A DNA stretch of 59,458 bases, the filler included. It is 6 parts of 6 records of this genome, joined end to end, with 100 filler letters (N's around TTAATTAATTAA, not from the genome) between each part and the next. Parts side by side here need not be neighbours in the genome. Positions count along the whole stretch, not along the records: positions 31,888 to 39,510 come from SRR31156797_51765; 5 more parts are not named here. One strand, 5' to 3'. The first letter of the stretch is position 1; each line of letters opens with the position of its first letter. Shown here piece by piece: positions 25,642 through 51,620 of this stretch. The translations under genes were made by a program, and so were the position numbers. Below the pieces are notes generated by a model. The model was not told the DNA's origin and made no database searches. It saw only the letters and a list, made by a program, of their open reading frames with translations.

Positions 25642-25741
25642 NNNNNNNNNNNNNNNNNNNNNNNNNNNNNNNNNNNNNNNNNNNNTTAATTAATTAANNN
25701 NNNNNNNNNNNNNNNNNNNNNNNNNNNNNNNNNNNNNNNNN
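25642..25741. other. Artificial contig spacer 1
   Basis: N44-TTAATTAATTAA-N44; stop codons in all six frames. Confidence 0.98.
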
Positions 25742-31787: not shown

Positions 31788-31887
31788 NNNNNNNNNNNNN
31801 NNNNNNNNNNNNNNNNNNNNNNNNNNNNNNNTTAATTAATTAANNNNNNNNNNNNNNNNNNNNNNNNNNNNNNNNNNNNNNNNNNNN
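31788..31887. other. Artificial contig spacer 2
   Basis: N44-TTAATTAATTAA-N44. Confidence 0.98.
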
Positions 31888-32055
31888 GCGGACGTCCATG
31901 TCCGCGCGGGGAATCACCGCAAGGCGGCGATAAAATTACCAGGTAATCCTTTAAAGCGGCCGCCCCTACAATTAGGAAGCAAGCTTATACATGTTTTCAA
32001 CATAAAGGAGCACCGACCAATCGGACAATAAATGCAGCGCGTGTTATATTAAACC

Positions 32056-33066
32056 ATGCCTGTATACCTAAAAACAGAAAGCCCGTTATTAAAATCCATA
32101 ACCTTCCTGGCGGTTGTTTTTGCTGTCTTCGGGGCTGCTTATCTCATCTGGTCGCCGGGCGAGCATTTTAGGGACGGGCGGCACGACCTGCGAAAAAACG
32201 GCATATGGATTCAACACGGCTGGCTGGGCCACGACTCCTGGTTTTCAAAATACAACAAGAATAAAAGCCGTTTCCGGGATGCCGATAAAATTAAGAAACT
32301 GGCCGGGCTATTTACCGATCATGGAATAAAATATGTCTTTCCCCATTTGTGTCCCTGCCGAAAAGACGGGACTATAGCGGAGGTCGATCCGGATCAGACA
32401 GAACTTTTTCTGGATCATTTTGAAGGATTCAAAGTCATGCCCTGGATTGGCGGCGTGCTCAACGTCCAATGTTTTCCCGATTCGGCCGAATGGCGAAGCA
32501 ACTTTGTATCGTCGGCCGTCAAACTGATCCACGAACATCCCCGGTTAGGCGGAGTACATGTCAATATCGAGCCCATGCCCACGGGCAACAAGGGCTTTTT
32601 GGTTCTACTGGCGGAACTCAGGAAAGCCATGCCCAAGGATAAGATCCTTTCCCTGGCCGCCTATCCTCCGCCGACACTGTGGCATCCGTTTCCCGAGGTT
32701 CATTGGGAAGAGCGGTATTTCAGGTCGGCGGCGAGTAATGTGGATCAAGTCGCCGTCATGATGTACGACACGGCAATCAGGTTTCGCAAGCCGTATATTA
32801 ATCTGATTTCCGACTGGGCTGGTGAAATAATTACCTGGGCCGAGGGAACACACGTATTGCTCGGGGCGCCCGTGTATGATGACGAGGGCGTCGGATACCA
32901 TTATCCAAAAATAGAAAATCTCGAAAATTTTCTGGCCGGCATTCATGCAGGCCTGGCCGGATTCGACCAAATCCCAAACAACTATGAAGGCGTCGCCATT
33001 TACTGTGAATGGGAAATGGACGACCTGGAATGGTTGTTATTGAAAAGGGAATTTGGGAAAGAATAG
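32056..33066 (+). CDS. Membrane-anchored GH18-like TIM-barrel protein
   Basis: N-terminal TM helix; GGVHVNIEP (degenerate DxxDxDxE), AVMMYD, LGAPVY, GVAIY. Confidence 0.6.
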   Translation: MPVYLKTESPLLKSITFLAVVFAVFGAAYLIWSPGEHFRDGRHDLRKNGIWIQHGWLGHDSWFSKYNKNKSRFRDADKIKKLAGLFTDHGIKYVFPHLCPCRKDGTIAEVDPDQTELFLDHFEGFKVMPWIGGVLNVQCFPDSAEWRSNFVSSAVKLIHEHPRLGGVHVNIEPMPTGNKGFLVLLAELRKAMPKDKILSLAAYPPPTLWHPFPEVHWEERYFRSAASNVDQVAVMMYDTAIRFRKPYINLISDWAGEIITWAEGTHVLLGAPVYDDEGVGYHYPKIENLENFLAGIHAGLAGFDQIPNNYEGVAIYCEWEMDDLEWLLLKREFGKE

Positions 33067-33199
33067 GATAGGCAATGTCGGCCCAGGGGTTTACCTTGCC
33101 AGGCAAATCGGATAGAAAAGAAAGAGCTAGGCGGCCAGGGATCGCGATCGTTTGACATACTAATCCCAAAATTCAGATATAACAGGATAAGAGGCGATT

Positions 33200-34087
33200 A
33201 TGGAAATCAAAACAATAGGCTGGATCGGGACGGGCGTCATGGGCAAGTCCATGTGTTCGCATATAATGAAAGCCGGTTTTACGGTTAATGTTTTTAACAG
33301 GACCAAGGAAAGAGCTGCCGAACTTGTTGATAAAGGCGCCGTTTGGTGCGACACCCCGGCGGAAGTCGGTGAAAAGAGCGACGCCGTGTTTTCAATTGTC
33401 GGTTATCCCAATGACGTGGAAGAAATTATGTTCGGCAAGACAGGTATTTTAACTCATAAACCCAAGTGTTCCTGTATAGTGGATATGACCACGTCGGAAC
33501 CGAGCCTGGCCGGTAAAATATACGACCGGGCCAGGGAGTCGGGAATATCGTCGCTCGACGCCCCGGTATCCGGGGGCGATGTCGGCGCCAGGGATGGGAA
33601 GCTGGCCATAATGGTCGGCGGCGACAGGGCCGCCTTTGACAATGTTCTGCCGTTTTTCAAATTAATGGGTGAAAATATTGCTTATCTTGGCGGACCGGGT
33701 TCAGGTCAGCACACAAAAATGAGCAACCAGATTCTTATTGCTTCCACCATGATCGGCGTAGTGGAATCGCTCTTGTACGGTTACAAGGCCGGCCTGGATA
33801 TTAACGAGGTTATCGATGTTATCGGCAAGGGCGCGGCCAGTTCGTGGTCGATAAACAATCTCGGCCGCAGGATAGCCGGAGGCGATTTTAATCCCGGCTT
33901 CTTTATCAAACACTTTGTCAAGGACATGGGCATCGCCCTGGAAGAAGCAAAAAGAATGAAACTGGCCCTGCCCGGGTTGTCCCTGGCCCATCAGTTTTAT
34001 GTTTCAGCCATGGCCATGGGGTGGGAAAACCTCGGCACTCAGGGGATATATAAGGTTTTTCAGAGAATGAACAATATTGGCGACTAA
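33200..34087 (+). CDS. NAD(P)-dependent beta-hydroxyacid dehydrogenase (3-hydroxyisobutyrate/tartronate semialdehyde reductase family)
   Basis: IGWIGTGVMG Rossmann motif, DAPVSGG, GQHTK.SNQ, F.IKHFVKDM. Confidence 0.92.
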   Translation: MEIKTIGWIGTGVMGKSMCSHIMKAGFTVNVFNRTKERAAELVDKGAVWCDTPAEVGEKSDAVFSIVGYPNDVEEIMFGKTGILTHKPKCSCIVDMTTSEPSLAGKIYDRARESGISSLDAPVSGGDVGARDGKLAIMVGGDRAAFDNVLPFFKLMGENIAYLGGPGSGQHTKMSNQILIASTMIGVVESLLYGYKAGLDINEVIDVIGKGAASSWSINNLGRRIAGGDFNPGFFIKHFVKDMGIALEEAKRMKLALPGLSLAHQFYVSAMAMGWENLGTQGIYKVFQRMNNIGD

Positions 34088-34173
34088 TTCATAAGTTAAA
34101 CCACCCGCTCTACCGGTGGTTACTGATTTTGATAGCGAAGCGGCCTCAAAGCCGCTTCAAAACACACCCGGGT

Positions 34174-34521
34174 TTAATCTTCTACGTATTCCGGGCGCAT
34201 GGGTGTAAAAAATTCTATTACTTCGGCGTCTTCCAGCACTTCCGCGCCATGATATTCATTGGGATCAAAGGTGTATCCGGTTCCGGCCTCGGCCGTGAAT
34301 CCCTGGTCGTCCTTTTTACTGAATCGAACTTTGCCGGAAATAACATAACCGGCCTGCACTGCTTCATGGTTGTGCAGAGGGATTTGCATTCCCGCGGTCA
34401 ATTTGAAATGACAGATCTGCGCCTGGGCATTGTAAGCCAGTGTGGTTCGGACGGCGCCCGGAGGGTTTTCGACTGATTTTGAGGAATCAACAGTTGCAAC
34501 AGGCTTCAATTTGATACTCAT
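34174..34521 (-). CDS. Cupin domain protein (KdgF-like)
   Basis: PLHNHEAVQAGYVISG, PNEYHG, FTPMRPEY. Confidence 0.85.
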   Translation of the reverse strand: MSIKLKPVATVDSSKSVENPPGAVRTTLAYNAQAQICHFKLTAGMQIPLHNHEAVQAGYVISGKVRFSKKDDQGFTAEAGTGYTFDPNEYHGAEVLEDAEVIEFFTPMRPEYVED

Positions 34522-34570
34522 CTTTTTTCCTCCCTTTATTAAACAATCCGCAATTGATCAATTTACAGCA

Positions 34571-35437
34571 TTACATTTTTAAAAGCATATCGTCCAGGTT
34601 GTTTTTTATTCTTAATGCCGTTGAAGGGGCGGCCCGGTATATTCCCAAAGCCGAACGCAGGAAACGGGCAAAGGAAACAGGGATATCCAATTGATGAACG
34701 TATGGACGATTTTCCAATGGAGCGGTTATAACCGGGATTGTCTTTTTTACGAATTGGGTCATTGCCCGCCGGTATTTACTCAAAAATCCCGGATCAAGAA
34801 TATCGGACAGGGTTAAACGGTCCAGCAGCTTTTCAAGGGAATATCCGTCCCGGCCATGGTTAAGCTTTTCATAAAGGTCGGCATATTTATCCCTGTAACT
34901 TAAGCGGTCCAATCCTGCCGGGTCTTCCTCAAACAGGCGTCTTATTATCTTTTCGCCGTACATCAGTAAGTGAAAAGCAGGATTCGTATTGGGGCTTGAA
35001 TATTCAAAAGCATCCAGGCCATGTGTCAGCCGGATAATAAACGATGCTGCTTCGGGATCGAGCTTATCAAAGACGGCCGCTTCCCGGCAGAGTTCACGAC
35101 GGCACTTGGGGCCGTACCCGGTCAGGTCGCGAAGATCCCGCCCCTGGTTTAGGGCGGGATGGAGCAAGCATCCGACCAGTGTTTTTTGACTGCTAAGGAA
35201 GCCGAGCCCCCAACAGGAATCGCCGGGTATCCATTCAGCCTTTTCCAGGTTTTCCTCAAGTCGCAGGGTATTCTCGTCAAGGGTTTTTATCATTTCAGGG
35301 CGATGGTCAATGTGATCGTAATCCGCAGACCTTATGGGCGGGCAGCACCTGAAACAGGAAGCATCGGCGCCGGGGCGGCACAGGCTGGAATAATGACCCG
35401 GGCTTGATTCGTTCCTTATTTCAGTTTTTGCGGCCAT
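34571..35437 (-). CDS. Cys-rich hypothetical protein (YkgJ/CxxCxxCC-like metal or Fe-S cluster domain)
   Basis: C-x7-CxxCC, CWGLGF, GCLLHP, CRRELC (8 Cys in the N-terminal half); start moved to ATG 35437 (MAAKTE) because the longer ORF runs through the atp terminator. Confidence 0.55.
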   Translation of the reverse strand: MAAKTEIRNESSPGHYSSLCRPGADASCFRCCPPIRSADYDHIDHRPEMIKTLDENTLRLEENLEKAEWIPGDSCWGLGFLSSQKTLVGCLLHPALNQGRDLRDLTGYGPKCRRELCREAAVFDKLDPEAASFIIRLTHGLDAFEYSSPNTNPAFHLLMYGEKIIRRLFEEDPAGLDRLSYRDKYADLYEKLNHGRDGYSLEKLLDRLTLSDILDPGFLSKYRRAMTQFVKKTIPVITAPLENRPYVHQLDIPVSFARFLRSALGIYRAAPSTALRIKNNLDDMLLKM

Positions 35438-35461
35438 TTTTCCGTTGTGGTTACGGCGGAT

Positions 35462-35491
35462 AAAAAAACGCGGCCGTATGACCGCGTTTTT
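35462..35491 (-). terminator. Intrinsic terminator closing the Fo operon
   Basis: Minus strand AAAAACGCGGT-CATACG-GCCGCGTTTTTTT, 25 nt after the atpF stop. Confidence 0.8.
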
Positions 35492-35516
35492 ATTGTTATT
35501 CTTTTTTATCAGGCGA

Positions 35517-36104
35517 TCAGGCGGTTTTTGCGTCCGACAGATTATCAAGATAGGATCCGATAATCCTGTCCTGATCCTGCTTGACGATCTGGGTGCGGAT
35601 CAGTTTTTCAGCTTCGTCAATTGTAAGCTGAACAAGTTCCGCCTTAACGTCGTCCCTGGCCTTTTTCAGCCTGGTCTGAGCCAGTTCTTTGGCGTCATTC
35701 ATGATGTGATCGGAATTATTACGCGCGTCTTCGATTATCCGATCCTTGGCCCGCCCGGCTTCTTCCAGGGCCAGCGTTTTAACCTGGCCGATCATGTCCT
35801 CTATCTGGGACAGCTTTTCCTGGGCCGCGTTATATTCCGCTTCCGCTTCCTCAACCATTTTCTTAGTCTGGCTTATCCTGTCTCCGATTTCACCGGACCT
35901 CTGAGCCAGAAAGTCCTTGATCGGCTTTTTTCCCAGCCTGACCACCAGGTAAGCGAGGATGAAAAAGTTAATGAATCTCCAGACCGTGTCCCATATCTTG
36001 CGCCCAGTACTGGGTCCTTCGTCATCGGCCCCGTAGGCGACAATCGGCGCCAGGCCCAGTGTGAGGACAACTACCAGGACTAGAATAATTCGTAGAAACC
36101 TCAT
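35517..36104 (-). CDS. atpF: ATP synthase Fo subunit b (deltaproteobacterial long-leader type)
   Basis: Signal-like leader, WRFINFFIL TM helix, KKPIKDFL..R coiled coil, DQDRII. Confidence 0.9.
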   Translation of the reverse strand: MRFLRIILVLVVVLTLGLAPIVAYGADDEGPSTGRKIWDTVWRFINFFILAYLVVRLGKKPIKDFLAQRSGEIGDRISQTKKMVEEAEAEYNAAQEKLSQIEDMIGQVKTLALEEAGRAKDRIIEDARNNSDHIMNDAKELAQTRLKKARDDVKAELVQLTIDEAEKLIRTQIVKQDQDRIIGSYLDNLSDAKTA

Positions 36105-36529
36105 GTCACTTTCCTGCCCATGACCTTTACGAACACCATATCGACAATGGCGTCCTTGTATTCGCCCATGCTCTCCCGAACCTTCGAGGCCTGTTCTTCC
36201 GCCTCGGCTTGAACCGAAGAGACGTGTTCCTGGGCTTGATTGCGCGCCTGATCGATTATTTCCTTGGCCTGGACCTCGGCTTCGCCTTTAACTTCATCGC
36301 CTTTTTCCGCGGCAGCCTTACGGGCTGTCTGCATTTGCGCTTCAAAGCTCTGAATCTTGCTCTCCGCCTCTTTGCGCAGCGATGTCAGCTTTTCCTTGGC
36401 ATCCGAGATGTGCTTCTCACGTTCTTCGAGAATCCTGAATGTGGGTTTGAACAGAACTCTATTGAGAATCCAGATCAGGATCAGGAAGTTAATCAATTGA
36501 ACCACTAGTGTGGCGTTGATGCTAATCAT
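36101..36529 (-). CDS. atpF: ATP synthase Fo subunit b'
   Basis: MISINATLVVQLINFLILIWILNRVLFKP, coiled coil, KVMGR; 4-nt overlap with subunit b. Confidence 0.9.
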   Translation of the reverse strand: MISINATLVVQLINFLILIWILNRVLFKPTFRILEEREKHISDAKEKLTSLRKEAESKIQSFEAQMQTARKAAAEKGDEVKGEAEVQAKEIIDQARNQAQEHVSSVQAEAEEQASKVRESMGEYKDAIVDMVFVKVMGRKVT

Positions 36530-36578
36530 GCGCCAGTAACTCCGGTTGTTAATGCGGGTAAAAACCCGCAGGCCTAAA

Positions 36579-36827
36579 TTAGACTACAAATATAAGCAGC
36601 AGCGCGACAACGAGGGAATAAATTCCCGTGGACTCGGAAACGGCCTGGCCGACCAGCATGGTCCTGGTCAAAAGACCGGCTTCCCGAGGACTGCGGCCGA
36701 TAGCGGAACAAGCCTGTCCAGCAGCATAACCTTCACCGATTCCTGGTCCAATAGCTCCAAAACCCATTGCCAGACCAGCGCCTAAAAGGGACAACGCCCT
36801 AATGAGGTCAGCACCAGAAATATCCAT
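36579..36827 (-). CDS. atpE: ATP synthase Fo subunit c, single hairpin, Na+-type
   Basis: GxGxGxG (GPGIGEG) with P28/E32 and ESTGIY (E65,S66,T67,Y70); RBS AGGAGG. Confidence 0.95.
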
Positions 36828-36854
36828 GTTACCCTCCTATTTAAGTAAAGACGA

Positions 36855-37826
36855 TTAAATTACGAATATAAGCACCAAGGCAATTACCATGGCGTAAATA
36901 ACTGTTGACTGGGCGACAGCCTGACCGATAAGCATTGTTCTGGTCAAAACGCCGCCGGCTTCTTCATTACGACCGACCCAACGAAGGGTTTCTTCGCCTG
37001 TTATACCATTGCCGAGCCCCGGACCGATTCCGCCGAGCCCCTGGCATAATCCAGCAGCCAGCACGGCCGCTGCCGTGATTATGCTTGCATCCGCGGGAAA
37101 TACCCGGAATATCAGCAATACGCTGACCACAAGACCGAAAATGGATGGGGTTTCCGTAACGGCCTGCCCGACAAGCATCGTTCCGGTAGCCCGGGCCTGC
37201 GCCTGGGGCTGGCGTGCTATTGTTTCACAGGTGGCCCCGGCGATCATTCCCTGACCTATACCGGCCCCGATAGCAGCCAATCCTGTGGAAAAGCCCGCCC
37301 CCAACAGGGCAAAGGCGTTGGGATTGAAAGCCCGGTCGCCGAAATCGAGAAACATCAGCATTAAAGACACGACCAGGGAATAGATGCCCTGGCTCTGGCA
37401 AACAGCCGCGCCAAGAATCATGGTCGTGGTTAATGTGCTTGTGGATGCAGGCTGACGGGCCATGCCTTCGCAAGCCCTGGCCGCCGGGAATCCCGAACCG
37501 ATGCCCGACCCGATAGCCCCGAATCCCATGCAGATGCCGGCGGCGATCAAGGCCACGGCCTTAATCATCTGAGGCGGAAACTGCATGAATATCAGGAGCA
37601 TGGCCACGACCAGGGCGAATATAGCCGTTGATTCGGCTACGGCCTGGCCGATAAGCATGGTTTTTATAGTATCTCCGGCCTTCTCGGGCCTCGAAGCGCA
37701 GGCCTTGTTGGCAAAACCCGCGATGTAACCTTCACCTATGGCCGCCCCGATCGCTCCCAACCCCATGGCCAGGCTTGCGCCGAAATAGCGGGCGCCGGTA
37801 ACCATAACTTCTACATCAAATGCCAT
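36855..37826 (-). CDS. atpE: Quadruplicated ATP synthase c subunit (4 hairpins, 8 TM helices)
   Basis: Four ~80-aa c-subunit repeats with essential-site motifs AESTAIF, CQSQGIY, TETPSIF, AQSTVIY. Confidence 0.92.
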   Translation of the reverse strand: MAFDVEVMVTGARYFGASLAMGLGAIGAAIGEGYIAGFANKACASRPEKAGDTIKTMLIGQAVAESTAIFALVVAMLLIFMQFPPQMIKAVALIAAGICMGFGAIGSGIGSGFPAARACEGMARQPASTSTLTTTMILGAAVCQSQGIYSLVVSLMLMFLDFGDRAFNPNAFALLGAGFSTGLAAIGAGIGQGMIAGATCETIARQPQAQARATGTMLVGQAVTETPSIFGLVVSVLLIFRVFPADASIITAAAVLAAGLCQGLGGIGPGLGNGITGEETLRWVGRNEEAGGVLTRTMLIGQAVAQSTVIYAMVIALVLIFVI

Positions 37827-37843
37827 TAGATGACCCGGGTCCT

Positions 37844-38518
37844 CTACTTGATCTGCACGGAAATGTAGACCAAGGTTAACATGGTGAAAACAAAAGCCTG
37901 AATAGTGCCGACAAACAACCCGAAGAAGGCGTTAAGAAACGGCGGCAGAACAAGACTGTATATCAGATGGCCCACAACGATAATTATGATGCTTCCGCCC
38001 ATGATGTTGCCGTAGAGACGGAATGAGATCGAAACTACCTTGGCAAGCTCTCCGATAATGTTAAGGGGCATCATAAATATGAAGGGCTGAAAATACTGAC
38101 TCAAATAGTCCTTCAAACCCTTAACCTTAATACCCGAATAGTGCGCTATAACAAACCCTAAAAGCCCCAAGCTCAACGGAGTATTGAGGTCCTTGGTCGG
38201 TTCTGAAAAGTAAGGTATGATTCCCCAGATGTTACAGAGCCACAGAAAAAGGAAAAGACCGCAAATCATTGGAAAATACTTGCGGTGGTCTTCAATTTCC
38301 AATGCGTCGTAAACCATGTCGTCGAAAATAGACACAAATAGCTCGGCGACGCTCTGCAAGGGGTTGGGAATCAGCTTGGTCTGCCTTGTGGCCAGAAAAC
38401 CGAACAAGATCAAAACCCCCATGATCATCCAGGTGTTGATCAAGGGAGCCTGATTAAGGGTGATGTCAAGTCCGCCGATAGAAAACTGCCACTGCGGCAT
38501 GTATGTGATTTCTTTCAT
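37844..38518 (-). CDS. atpB: ATP synthase Fo subunit a
   Basis: PTKDLN, PLNIIGE, SISFRLYGN (essential Arg), IQAFVFTML. Confidence 0.95.
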   Translation of the reverse strand: MKEITYMPQWQFSIGGLDITLNQAPLINTWMIMGVLILFGFLATRQTKLIPNPLQSVAELFVSIFDDMVYDALEIEDHRKYFPMICGLFLFLWLCNIWGIIPYFSEPTKDLNTPLSLGLLGFVIAHYSGIKVKGLKDYLSQYFQPFIFMMPLNIIGELAKVVSISFRLYGNIMGGSIIIIVVGHLIYSLVLPPFLNAFFGLFVGTIQAFVFTMLTLVYISVQIK

Positions 38519-38519
38519 T

Positions 38520-38918
38520 TCAGCGCCCTTGTGCGGTCTGGTCGCCCATTAGCCCGTAGCGTTCAATGACCAGACCATAGATGAGAATGGATAACTGTAA
38601 GTTAAAGATGCCGATTGCGGTCCAAATGACGTTAAACTCAGGCAGGCGAAAAGCTGCATACAATGGCAGGGCCATCAAGCCCAGTCGCAGACCGAGCCCC
38701 AAGGCGCTGTGCGCTGTAGCCGATTTGCCTTCTTTACCAAGCCTGTTGGGCGCCTGCCAAGCCATGACAAGGAAGTTGATTAACGAGAAAAAACTTCCCA
38801 GCACAAAACCTTTGGCCGCTGGTTTATATCCAAGCAACAAAGCCCCGCCGCCTACGATTGCGGCGATGACCAGGATTAGTATGATTATAACTTTTTTAAA
38901 TTTTATTAAATCGCCCAT
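38520..38918 (-). CDS. atpI: ATP synthase subunit I (c-ring assembly factor)
   Basis: Four TM helices, GFVLGS..S.INF, position upstream of atpB; start uncertain (ATG 38918 chosen). Confidence 0.75.
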   Translation of the reverse strand: MGDLIKFKKVIIILILVIAAIVGGGALLLGYKPAAKGFVLGSFFSLINFLVMAWQAPNRLGKEGKSATAHSALGLGLRLGLMALPLYAAFRLPEFNVIWTAIGIFNLQLSILIYGLVIERYGLMGDQTAQGR

Positions 38919-38976
38919 AACACAGATACAGAGGAACTCGCCTCCATTTATGTACGCCAGATGTGAAAACAGGAAC

Positions 38977-39005
38977 AAAGTAGTCAAACCAGCGGATTTT
39001 GTCAA
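38977..39005 (-). promoter_or_regulatory. Possible internal sigma70 promoter before atpI
   Basis: TTGACA-17nt-TACTTT on the minus strand. Confidence 0.45.
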
Positions 39006-39025
39006 TAGAAAAGGTTAACCTTTTT

Positions 39026-39283
39026 TTAATCGCCCTTATTTTCCTTGTTTTGGGAGCCTTCGTCCCCTCCGATTTCCATTATCTGCCGGTAAACGGTATA
39101 TCCGCCGCCCACAACCCCCAACAGTATGAAAATAGTAAGAAATATACCTTTTGTACCCAGCCATTTATCAAGGTAATAACCTACGGCGAAACAGAAAACT
39201 ATGCAGCCGGCCATGGTTAATCCCAGTTGGGTAACCAAGGTCATCTGTTCCATTATTTGCTTATATTCCTTACCTTTACGCAA
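39026..39283 (-). CDS. atpZ: AtpZ/AtpI (ATPase gene 1) family protein
   Basis: G...G.YLDKWLGT...F..LG..GG pattern; GGGAGG RBS before the TTG start. Confidence 0.85.
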   Translation of the reverse strand: MRKGKEYKQIMEQMTLVTQLGLTMAGCIVFCFAVGYYLDKWLGTKGIFLTIFILLGVVGGGYTVYRQIMEIGGDEGSQNKENKGD

Positions 39284-39307
39284 TTTAAACGCCTCCCTTA
39301 CTACCTA

Positions 39308-39336
39308 ATTCTAACAACGACCGGGTTCACAGTCAA
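39308..39336 (-). promoter_or_regulatory. sigma70 promoter of the Fo operon
   Basis: TTGACT-17nt-TAGAAT on the minus strand, about 25 nt upstream of atpZ. Confidence 0.7.
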
Positions 39337-39510
39337 TGTCTGCTTTAGTCCGTTAAAAAAGGTACAAAGTAATCCGTCAAATTGCCAAACGTTAAAAGCC
39401 GCCTATTTGTAAACCGAGAAAATCGCCGGATTGAGAAATTGAAAACCCGCCCGAAATTATAAGTGCGAGTTACGGATGAACTTATAGTGGTTCTCAAAAG
39501 TATTTTCCAA

Positions 39511-39610
39511 NNNNNNNNNNNNNNNNNNNNNNNNNNNNNNNNNNNNNNNNNNNNTTAATTAATTAANNNNNNNNNNNNNNNNNNNNNNNNNNNNNNNNNN
39601 NNNNNNNNNN
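39511..39610. other. Artificial contig spacer 3
   Basis: N44-TTAATTAATTAA-N44. Confidence 0.98.
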
Positions 39611-40406
39611 CGATCTCTTCATTGACCTGCATGGTGCCCAACTGTGCGGCAAAGGCGGCACCTGTCCGCCCGGCCATGATGATTCCGGCCATGACGGCTC
39701 CCATGACACGGACCATTGCAATCCCCACCAGGTTGGCCACGTATATCTGAGCACCGAACATCATCAATTGGACCGCCCCCACAAAGGCGAGAATCAGACC
39801 CACCAGCAGGCTGATGAGGGAGACAATGGGAAGGGCTTCAATGCCGCAGTCCTGTATGATCCGGGTCAGATCAGAGCGGCGGAAGCGGGCTTTTCCGGCC
39901 AGGAACCGGGTAAAGGCCGTGAAGGTTTCACCCACAAAGGCGAGTGCTTCCCCCGAGGAGTGAAAAAATGCCATTGATTTGGCACCCACTCGAAAAAGAA
40001 ATGTCTCTTTTCGTGATTTTTTCCGGGCGCCTTCTTTTTCCGGCACTGCCGCCGCGAGATCCAGGAGTTTTCCGGCGCCATCAGGCAGGCCGGTTTTGTC
40101 AATGTCGATACCATATTTTGAAGACAGATCGCTCAACCGGCCAAGGAATATGAGAAGGGCACTGTCCCAGTCCGTAACGCCGGTTGCATTAAAAGCAATT
40201 CCAATGGTGGTGTGCCTAGTCATCTCTTTTTTGACGAGATCGGCTGAAGGACGTTTGTATTTAAGGGTCCAGCTTCCGGAAAGGTTGATCAGAAGCGTTT
40301 TTTTATCAGAACGGTCAAAAGAAAGCGCACAATCCTGTGACTCTGAATCGGTTGTGCCGGCGGTATGGCGGTATGGCTTCATGAAGGTACGATCCGGTGT
40401 ATGCAC
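39611..40406 (-). CDS. mlaE: MlaE family ABC permease with STAS-like N-domain (3'-truncated by gap; start uncertain)
   Basis: DWDSA, ALPIV.L...LVG.ILAF.G..QL..FGA, GRTGAAFAAQLGTMQVNEEI. Confidence 0.88.
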
Positions 40407-44911: not shown

Positions 44912-45011
44912 NNNNNNNNNNNNNNNNNNNNNNNNNNNNNNNNNNNNNNNNNNNNTTAATTAATTAANNNNNNNNNNNNNNNNNNNNNNNNNNNNNNNNN
45001 NNNNNNNNNNN
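44912..45011. other. Artificial contig spacer 4
   Basis: N44-TTAATTAATTAA-N44. Confidence 0.98.
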
Positions 45012-51520: not shown

Positions 51521-51620
51521 NNNNNNNNNNNNNNNNNNNNNNNNNNNNNNNNNNNNNNNNNNNNTTAATTAATTAANNNNNNNNNNNNNNNNNNNNNNNN
51601 NNNNNNNNNNNNNNNNNNNN
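51521..51620. other. Artificial contig spacer 5
   Basis: N44-TTAATTAATTAA-N44. Confidence 0.98.

Follow-up and report, generated by a model that had tools for sequence, protein, structure and literature searches.

At positions 36855-37826 of the stretch of DNA analyzed here (59,458 nucleotides (nt) in all; the window) lies an open reading frame (ORF) for an ATP synthase c subunit of 323 amino acids (aa) that is built of four c-subunit hairpins; we call it c4. We put at about two chances in three the reading that c4 belongs to the rotor, in an F/V-hybrid ring that is coupled to Na+ and has more hairpins than ion sites, a composition that would lower the Na+/ATP ratio. The four hairpins had been recognized from the letters of the window alone in an original prediction, and a profile search recovers them as four separate stretches matching PF00137 (ATP-synt_C; E 6.6e-61; 202.9 bits against a cut-off of 24), so that c4 is not a chance feature. 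The strand had to be corrected: the ORF lies on the minus strand, and the plus-strand frame is full of stops. The protein also passes TIGR01260 (163.3 against a cut-off of 43.95), and an AlphaFold2 model made from a 28-sequence alignment has eight long helices, with a mean predicted local distance difference test (pLDDT) score of 93.6 and a predicted template modeling (pTM) score of 0.90.

The ion-site residues were read at the positions equivalent to 32, 65, 66, 67 and 70 of Ilyobacter tartaricus, by aligning the four hairpins with the 82-aa c subunit (small c) whose gene starts 27 nt downstream of c4. Hairpins with and without the carboxylate at position 65 are called live and dead.

37578-37826, minus strand: hairpin 1 of c4, residues 1-83, E32/E65/S66/T67/F70, two-carboxylate type, live
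37338-37577, minus strand: hairpin 2 of c4, residues 84-163, S111/Q144/S145/Q146/Y149, dead
37098-37337, minus strand: hairpin 3 of c4, residues 164-243, Q192/E225/T226/P227/F230, live
36855-37097, minus strand: hairpin 4 of c4, residues 244-323 plus the stop codon, N273/Q306/S307/T308/Y311, dead
36833-36838, minus strand: AGGAGG, Shine-Dalgarno site of the small c gene
36579-36827, minus strand: small c, one hairpin, 82 aa, PF00137 (E 1.3e-17), E32/E65/S66/T67/Y70

Every site residue and residue number that had been listed for c4 is correct, with E-Q-E-Q at position 65 and F-Y-F-Y at position 70. As an F-type c subunit c4 is atypical, since the helix-2 carboxylate is found only in hairpins 1 and 3 and is replaced by Gln in hairpins 2 and 4. 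The motif of small c, including ESTGIY, is the same as that of the Fusobacterium nucleatum c subunit (3zk1) in the alignment from the search of the PDB, and its five site residues are invariant in 10 of 10 aligned orthologues.

Judged from its homologues, the c4 site pattern is under purifying selection and is not decaying. E65, F70, Q144, T226, P227, F230, Q306, S307, T308 and Y311 do not vary in any of the 28 four-hairpin homologues, which are 63-90% identical to the window protein, and among 16 close orthologues mean identity is 0.69-0.73 at each of the four hairpin positions, such that dead hairpins are as conserved as live ones. A mis-assembled fusion, which the original prediction had left to be checked against reads, can be excluded. 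Logan contigs of an independent metagenome sequencing run from a different study (X2) span positions 36400-38600 in one piece, with 36 substitutions and no insertion or deletion relative to the window. The 27 substitutions that fall within c4 include 25 silent ones and two amino-acid changes (T53A and I250V), and introduce no stop. Because this contig carries the same open frame, c4 is not an assembly artefact, and the excess of silent changes, together with the invariant site residues, bears out the earlier suggestion of selection rather than decay. A contig of a further run (X1) is identical and was not counted as independent support, as this DNA may itself derive from X1.

PMC3692424 describes how the F. 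nucleatum ring binds Na+: the ion is held by Glu32 and Glu65 and, from the neighboring c subunit, by Ser66 and the carbonyl of Val63, while Tyr70 and Ser66 hydrogen-bond Glu65 and Thr67 holds a water molecule. Both small c and hairpin 1 of c4 share E32/E65/S66/T67 with this ring (c11; 3zk1), and small c alone also has Y70; unlike c4, the F. nucleatum ring is homomeric, with one-hairpin subunits and every site live. In our model for c4, ion sites would sit at the interfaces between hairpins, the position 65 carboxylate and the helix-1 ligand at position 32 coming from one hairpin and residues 66, 67 and 70 from the hairpin that precedes it in the chain. The live site of hairpin 3 (Q192/E225) would be completed by S145/Q146/Y149 of hairpin 2. 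That of hairpin 1 (E32/E65) would be completed by the Ser, Thr and Tyr of the preceding ring subunit, and S307/T308/Y311 of hairpin 4 would do the same for the subunit that comes next in the ring. No ion would be bound where hairpin 1 meets hairpin 2 or hairpin 3 meets hairpin 4, since Gln stands in for Glu there and Tyr70 is lost. Most likely, c4 would be present in low copy number and would co-assemble with many copies of small c into an F/V-hybrid ring like that of Acetobacterium woodii.

Several observations point to small c as the partner. In each of the 12 complete loci of a genome scan (a thirteenth, cut by a contig end, was left out of the count) the next gene after the multi-hairpin one encodes a one-hairpin c, and two further relatives, G046 and G024, show the same order. 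In all 12 loci the small c gene has GGAGG at normal spacing, with a mean duplex energy of -10.5 kcal/mol, and its Shine-Dalgarno is stronger than that of the multi-hairpin gene, which is weak (-4.5 kcal/mol). This difference suggests that many small c subunits may be made for each multi-hairpin chain, as in the A. woodii ring. A predicted complex of c4 and small c reached an ipSAE (interface score from predicted aligned errors) of 0.67, compared with 0.00 for the best of three controls, and the mark that it passes is reached by 58 of 80 solved complexes and by 2 of 110 mismatched pairs. Contact agreement between runs was at least 97%, and the pLDDT of the partner at least 85. In the predicted complex small c docks on hairpin 4 (residues 248-323), where its segment with E32 and E65 is in contact with residues 306-309 and 311 of c4; we read this as likeness, not as binding. 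The ring of 11 hairpins, 9 sites and 3.0 ions per ATP that had been put forward is arithmetic on an assumed stoichiometry, and is one possibility among several.

The closest known system is the A. woodii c1 subunit, and the parallel drawn to it from the letters alone, with a multi-hairpin c just upstream of a Na+-type c, is upheld in sequence as well as in fold. Among solved structures, phmmer ranks A. woodii c1 first (4bem_J; E 3.4e-23; residues 153-321), and this chain is also the best Foldseek match (E 2.1e-07), with a TM (template modeling) score of 0.81 on the target and only 0.46 on the query; none of the solved chains matched by Foldseek spans all four hairpins. According to PMC7911925, c1 consists of a live hairpin 1 and a dead hairpin 2 and the Na+/ATP ratio is reduced. 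In the printed alignment its two hairpins read Q/E/T/S/F and Q/Q/T/T/Y. Like c4, the c1 of A. woodii and Clostridium aceticum is a multi-hairpin c encoded between atpB and a one-hairpin Na+-type atpE, and A. woodii c1 likewise has Gln for the carboxylate in some hairpins, with Phe70 in the live and Tyr70 in the dead hairpin. The two differ in that c4 has four hairpins, two live and two dead, whereas c1 has two with one Gln, and in that hairpin 1 of c4 and small c have the E32 and E65 two-carboxylate motif, whereas c1 has Q32. Moreover, the c4 lineage has a module with its own b' and b apart from the F1 genes, its carriers hold a second canonical a/c set, and they belong to the Thermodesulfobacteriota, unlike the acetogenic Firmicutes that carry the A. 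woodii type. We would class c4 with the hybrid-rotor subunits of the A. woodii type, as a variant that follows the same logic with more hairpins.

Other multi-hairpin proteolipids are less similar. V/A-type proteolipids such as Enterococcus hirae NtpK (2bl2) and the eukaryotic subunit c have two hairpins per chain and one carboxylate. NtpK aligns best to hairpins 2 and 3 of c4 (dead, then live), and V-type proteolipids come next after A. woodii c1 in Foldseek, with TM scores on the target of about 0.8. Identity of c4 as a V/A-type K/c subunit was rejected, with scores of 139.4 against 211 for NF004913 and 91.4 against 188 for NF011483 and with F-type a, b, b', AtpI and AtpZ as neighbors. The N-ATPase operon has the order atpDCQRBEFAG. 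An N-ATPase c (TIGR03322) was also rejected: c4 does pass that model (165.8 against 130.85), because its four repeats add up, but small c by itself reaches 67.6, the a subunit stays below the cut-off of TIGR03306 (136.1 against 302.1), and there is no beta or epsilon gene upstream. Archaeal K subunits can have three hairpins (Methanocaldococcus) or 13 (Methanopyrus). They show the same principle of fusion with a varied number of live sites, but are A-type and archaeal, whereas c4 belongs to a bacterial F-type Fo. These archaeal subunits are mentioned in a preprint on rotary-ATPase evolution (10.64898/2026.10.01.756066), which, in the portion available, names only A. woodii among bacteria. For Desulfatiglandales, the available portion of PMC13343851 has only "two to four atpE copies". 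A full-text literature search found no description of a bacterial F-type c with more than two hairpins, although an earlier listing in reviews or supplements remains possible, and the multi-hairpin F-type c family is apparently undescribed.

The family is large. A word-indexed protein search gave 2538 proteins at E<=1e-3 among 7999 candidates scored, and the best 120 of these 2538 fall into length classes near 323, 405 and 485 aa. With their hairpins cut by a hidden Markov model of the window's own hairpins, these 120 and the window protein (the 121-protein set) comprise 29 proteins with four hairpins, 73 with five and 19 with six. Position 65 reads EQEQ in 23, EQQQ in five and EQNQ in one of the four-hairpin proteins; EQQQQ in 59 and EQQQE in 14 of those with five hairpins; and EQQQQQ in 15, EQQQQE in three and QQEQQQ in one of those with six. 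The alternation whose conservation was to be checked in full-length homologues is found in 23 of 29 four-hairpin proteins, but other relatives read EQQQ, EQEE, EQQE, EQQQQ or EQQQQQ. Given this variation (E-Q-E-E, E-Q-Q-E, E-Q-Q-Q), the E/Q alternation is a trait of the sub-lineage of the window protein and not of the family. In the long dead runs of five- and six-hairpin relatives (for example L010:5995-7458), most of which have a single carboxylate, four or five consecutive hairpins would pass subunit a without an ion, and how synthesis would be driven across them is unexplained.

When hairpins 3 and 4 were used as the query, 317 shorter relatives were found, many with three hairpins (about 240 aa), from sources that include Desulfocarbo indianensis, Desulfacinum hydrothermale, Cloacimonadota, Margulisiibacteriota and Auribacterota. 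An exhaustive search of 1.84 billion cluster representatives returned 2008, 385 and 90 proteins at E<=1e-3, 1e-10 and 1e-30, respectively. The closest relative is a Desulfarculia metagenome-assembled genome (MAG) of the phylum Thermodesulfobacteriota, which defined our sampling: in an even sample of 301 genomes of this phylum, a multi-hairpin match (E<=1e-25) occurs in 29, and extends over at least 310 of the 323 residues in 17. Among cultured organisms, Desulfosarcina cetonica JCM 12296 carries a four-hairpin c (L003:6001-6975; 57% identity) that reads E-Q-E-E with F-Y-Y-Y and has three live sites and one dead; this genome also has an N-ATPase-like cluster on contig C67. Outside the Thermodesulfobacteriota, a Candidatus Brocadiia MAG (L013, Planctomycetota) encodes a c of three hairpins and, after it, a small c that has Q32. 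There are also giant c proteins (P0245, 1139 aa; P0312, 1042 aa; P0260, 968 aa; P0338, 784 aa; P0302, 631 aa) with 7 to 12 or more hairpins, nearly every one of which has Glu65 and Tyr70. In public databases, the multi-hairpin proteins are named plain "ATP synthase F0 subunit C".

Hairpins 1, 3 and 4 of the window type correspond, by position-wise orthology, to the first, penultimate and last hairpins of the five- and six-hairpin proteins. The extra hairpins resemble hairpin 2, which argues that the longer forms grew by duplication of dead hairpins. The proposed origin of c4 as a duplicated c1, in contrast, finds no support, since hairpins 1 and 3 and hairpins 2 and 4 do not pair in the hairpin tree and its deep forks are open; mean identities lean only slightly toward these pairs (0.41 and 0.44, against 0.37-0.40 for other pairs). 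In the same tree hairpin 1 of c4 groups with hairpin 1 of two-hairpin EQ/FY proteins (SH-aLRT, the Shimodaira-Hasegawa-like approximate likelihood ratio test, 83) and hairpin 4 with hairpin 2 of EQ/FY proteins and small c (92), the deep nodes again being open. The tree was made by a quick method from 87 rows and 79 columns, with A. woodii absent and with two divergent EQQQ proteins and some two-hairpin rows on long branches. What stands of the original interpretation is therefore a hybrid-rotor subunit with selected live and dead sites, and what lacks support is its evolutionary detail and its numbers.

The family also bears on which hairpin completes which site. Among internal pairs of the 121-protein set, Tyr70 stands before a Gln65 hairpin in 0 of 432 cases (Phe in 392, Leu in 40) and before a Glu65 hairpin in 31 of 41, and there is no such association between Tyr and Glu if each hairpin is instead paired with the one that follows. 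In a 328-protein set, one of the 661 internal pairs whose second hairpin has Gln starts with Tyr70, compared with 67 of the 223 whose second hairpin has a carboxylate. Other architectures obey the same rule, including EQEE/FYYY (D. cetonica), EQQE/FFYY and EQQQE/FFFYY. Family-wide, chains begin with E-E-S-x-F and nearly always end with x-Q-S-T-Y, in keeping with a ring where the final hairpin of one subunit would supply what the site of the following subunit lacks. The earlier claim that Tyr is kept only where it could complete a live neighboring site stands to the extent that Tyr is lost before dead hairpins, with the single exception among 661 pairs.

The c4 gene is part of an F-type Fo module with the order atpZ-atpI-atpB-c4-c-atpF'-atpF, all on the minus strand.

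39026-39283, minus strand: atpZ-like small membrane protein, first gene of the module, PF09527 ATPase_gene1 (E 2.6e-18)
38520-39005, minus strand: atpI, assembly factor, PF03899 ATP-synt_I (E 2.1e-11); the listed start is TTG, and the true start may lie further in
37844-38518, minus strand: atpB, Fo subunit a, PF00119 (E 2.3e-51)
36855-37826, minus strand: c4, as above; weak Shine-Dalgarno site
36101-36529, minus strand: atpF', subunit b', PF00430 (E 3.2e-15)
35517-36104, minus strand: atpF, subunit b, last gene of the module, PF00430 (E 4.9e-15)

Directly after atpF, and overlapping its end by 32 nt, is an ORF of 325 aa (34571-35548, minus strand) that has no Pfam match and has a Cys-rich stretch near its N-terminal third. 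It is found in the same place in the relative G001 (51% identity over 276 aa).

Statements at the level of whole genomes are drawn from relatives (G001, G002, G003, G024, G046 and others). G001 is a complete 4.83-Mb chromosome with a c4 82% identical to that of the window, and the window contig is syntenic with its c4 module from the 325-aa ORF through atpZ. This chromosome holds one F1 operon (b'-b-delta-alpha-gamma-beta-epsilon), a separate canonical atpZ-I-B-E with the c motif Q/E/S/L/Y, and the c4 module with its own b' and b. In G046 a four-hairpin gene (EQQQ) lies in a complete operon, Z-I-a-c4-c-b'-b-delta-alpha-gamma-beta-epsilon, which contains the only gamma gene of the genome; G024 has the same layout with a three-hairpin gene, and each of these two genomes also has a separate canonical a-c pair. 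Among 31 carrier genomes, many of them draft MAGs, subunit a (PF00119) has two matches in 26 and three in five, and gamma (PF00231) has one in 25, two in five (in one case apparently one gene divided between two contigs) and none in one; exactly two a and one gamma are found in 23. The window a is 81% and 65% identical to the a of the c4 modules of G001 and G046, but only 34-37% identical to their canonical a, and the a that travels with the multi-hairpin c is a distinct, old paralogue. Carriers hold two divergent a/c sets and one gamma, and the simplest reading is that a single F1 would be served by both sets.

In a Chloroflexus-like enzyme, a ring is shared by two a subunits, an architecture that PMC12002316 ties to a shortened delta. 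We considered this arrangement for the genomes with two a and one gamma and think it unlikely, as G001 and G046 each have a delta that matches the OSCP profile in full. Two further features of these genomes deserve mention. A bactofilin gene lies just upstream of the F1-containing operon in G001 and G046, and the canonical c of G001, G046 and G024 (L030:4155-4520, L037:2140-2499 and L038:3284-3625) has a long, hydrophobic, signal-peptide-like N-terminal extension and a site, Q/E/S/L/Y, that is Na+-like without Thr67.

The window itself is made of at least six contigs placed end to end, with an artificial spacer, N44-TTAATTAATTAA-N44, in between.

25642-25741, 31788-31887, 39511-39610, 44912-45011, 51521-51620: spacers

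The atp contig corresponds to positions 31888-39510, and neighborhood across a spacer does not mean linkage, so that only genes within these limits are shown linked to c4. ORFs that reach into spacers, such as 39555-40406, are cut genes. The first contig (1-18842) encodes a glycoside hydrolase (GH) of family GH5, two GH3, a GH94, a sodium:solute symporter, a SusC-like TonB receptor, SusD and a protein with a type IX secretion system sorting tail, a gene set typical of Bacteroidota and not of sulfate reducers. Either more than one organism may be present in the bin, or the first contig and the atp contig may come from different genomes. A PLSDB megablast with 31888-39510 gave no plasmid match.

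Some of our findings weigh against a hybrid Na+ ring of c4 and small c. The atp contig has no F1 genes, and that the module meets an F1 is suggested by relatives. In the 328-protein set, carboxylate hairpins are preceded by Phe in 138 of 223 pairs, and, as live hairpins so often lack a preceding Tyr, the Tyr rule does not hold in this direction and Tyr70 is not needed for a live site. When ancestry was corrected for, with independent-pair tests on trees built without the site columns, Tyr had changed only 2, 3 and 10 times in the four-, five- and three-hairpin classes, and the tests gave about 1.3, 2.0 and 1.7 pairs in which Tyr goes with Glu against 0, 0 and 0.1 of the opposite kind; none is significant, and the tests are underpowered. 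The anti-Shine-Dalgarno string was a consensus, and Shine-Dalgarno strength is only a proxy for the protein ratio. Finally, similar c-rings have already been solved, so the favorable score of the predicted c4-small c complex may be the model's memory.

Other readings of the module are possible. The enzyme could be mainly an ATP-driven Na+ export pump, in which dead sites would lower the Na+/ATP ratio and thereby allow a steeper gradient while synthesis is left to the canonical a/c set. The prevalence of two a with one gamma (23 of 31 carriers), the canonical atpZ-I-B-E of G001 besides its c4 module and the age of the two a paralogues, at 34-37% identity, are all in keeping with such a division, and the four or five consecutive dead hairpins of EQQQQ and EQQQQQ proteins would leave a long arc of the ring without an ion-driven step, which may be easier to reconcile with a motor driven by F1. 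We nevertheless consider a dedicated pump unlikely: the multi-hairpin gene is in the only complete F1Fo operon of G046 and G024, each dead hairpin of the window protein is flanked by live ones, PMC7911925 describes the hybrid enzyme of the A. woodii type as an ATP synthase, and an enzyme with a V-type c is reported to make ATP (PMC9171764). Less probable still is a ring of c4 only, for example of three copies with 12 hairpins and 6 sites, small c being used in separate rings or under other conditions. V/A-type rings are built from multi-hairpin subunits alone, V-type proteolipids follow A. woodii c1 among the Foldseek matches, and the S/T/Y of hairpin 4 could equally complete hairpin 1 of another c4. 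Yet small c adjoins in every complete locus (12 of 12, plus two), with the strong Shine-Dalgarno set against the weak one of the multi-hairpin gene in all 12, and the position-wise orthology of members with three to six hairpins is more easily explained if they insert into a ring whose size is fixed than if they form homomeric rings of varied size.

We give similarly poor odds to a ring that is H+-coupled or promiscuous despite its Na+-type motif. Ion specificity is not certain from sequence, hairpin 3 has Pro at position 67, and in 5 of 22 homologues with E225 hairpin 2 has S-P..F instead of S-Q..Y; on the other hand, small c has all five Na+-site residues of F. nucleatum, and the interface of hairpins 2 and 3 in the window protein offers Q192, E225, S145, Q146 and Y149. 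The least credible view denies c4 any role in the ring and sees in it a tandem duplication in decay or an artefact of assembly. Half of its carboxylates are indeed lost, but this view is contradicted by the same open frame in the X2 contig with 25 of 27 substitutions silent, by dead hairpins that are conserved like live ones (0.69-0.73) and by the recurrence of the architecture in 29 of 301 sampled genomes. We therefore continue to favor c4 as a subunit of a Na+-coupled hybrid ring.

How many ions an ATP synthase uses per ATP normally depends on nothing but the count of identical c subunits in its ring and, to our knowledge, the A. woodii hybrid ring, with one dead site, has so far been the sole bacterial F-type exception. 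In the family described here one to five sites per subunit would be silenced, and roughly one in ten of the species sampled from a major phylum of syntrophs and sulfate reducers has such a subunit. This suggests that evolution in energy-limited anaerobes has commonly used dead hairpins to tune the gear ratio. With so large and varied a family around it, apparently still unstudied, c4 is a less singular gene with more interesting biology. A bolder and tentative idea, to which we give well short of even odds, is that the Thermodesulfobacteriota and some other anaerobic phyla possess a rotor "gearbox", in which c subunits of three to six hairpins are combined with two interchangeable Fo cartridges on one F1. 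If so, anywhere from one to nearly all hairpins would be live, with duplication of dead hairpins setting the Na+/ATP ratio lineage by lineage; the cartridges would be a Na+-type a with a hybrid c-ring and a canonical a with its c; and one cell could run two differently geared or coupled ATP synthases. The cultured carrier D. cetonica JCM 12296 opens the way to asking how few sites a rotor can have, whether synthesis is possible with long dead arcs, and whether one F1 can be shared by two Fo sets.

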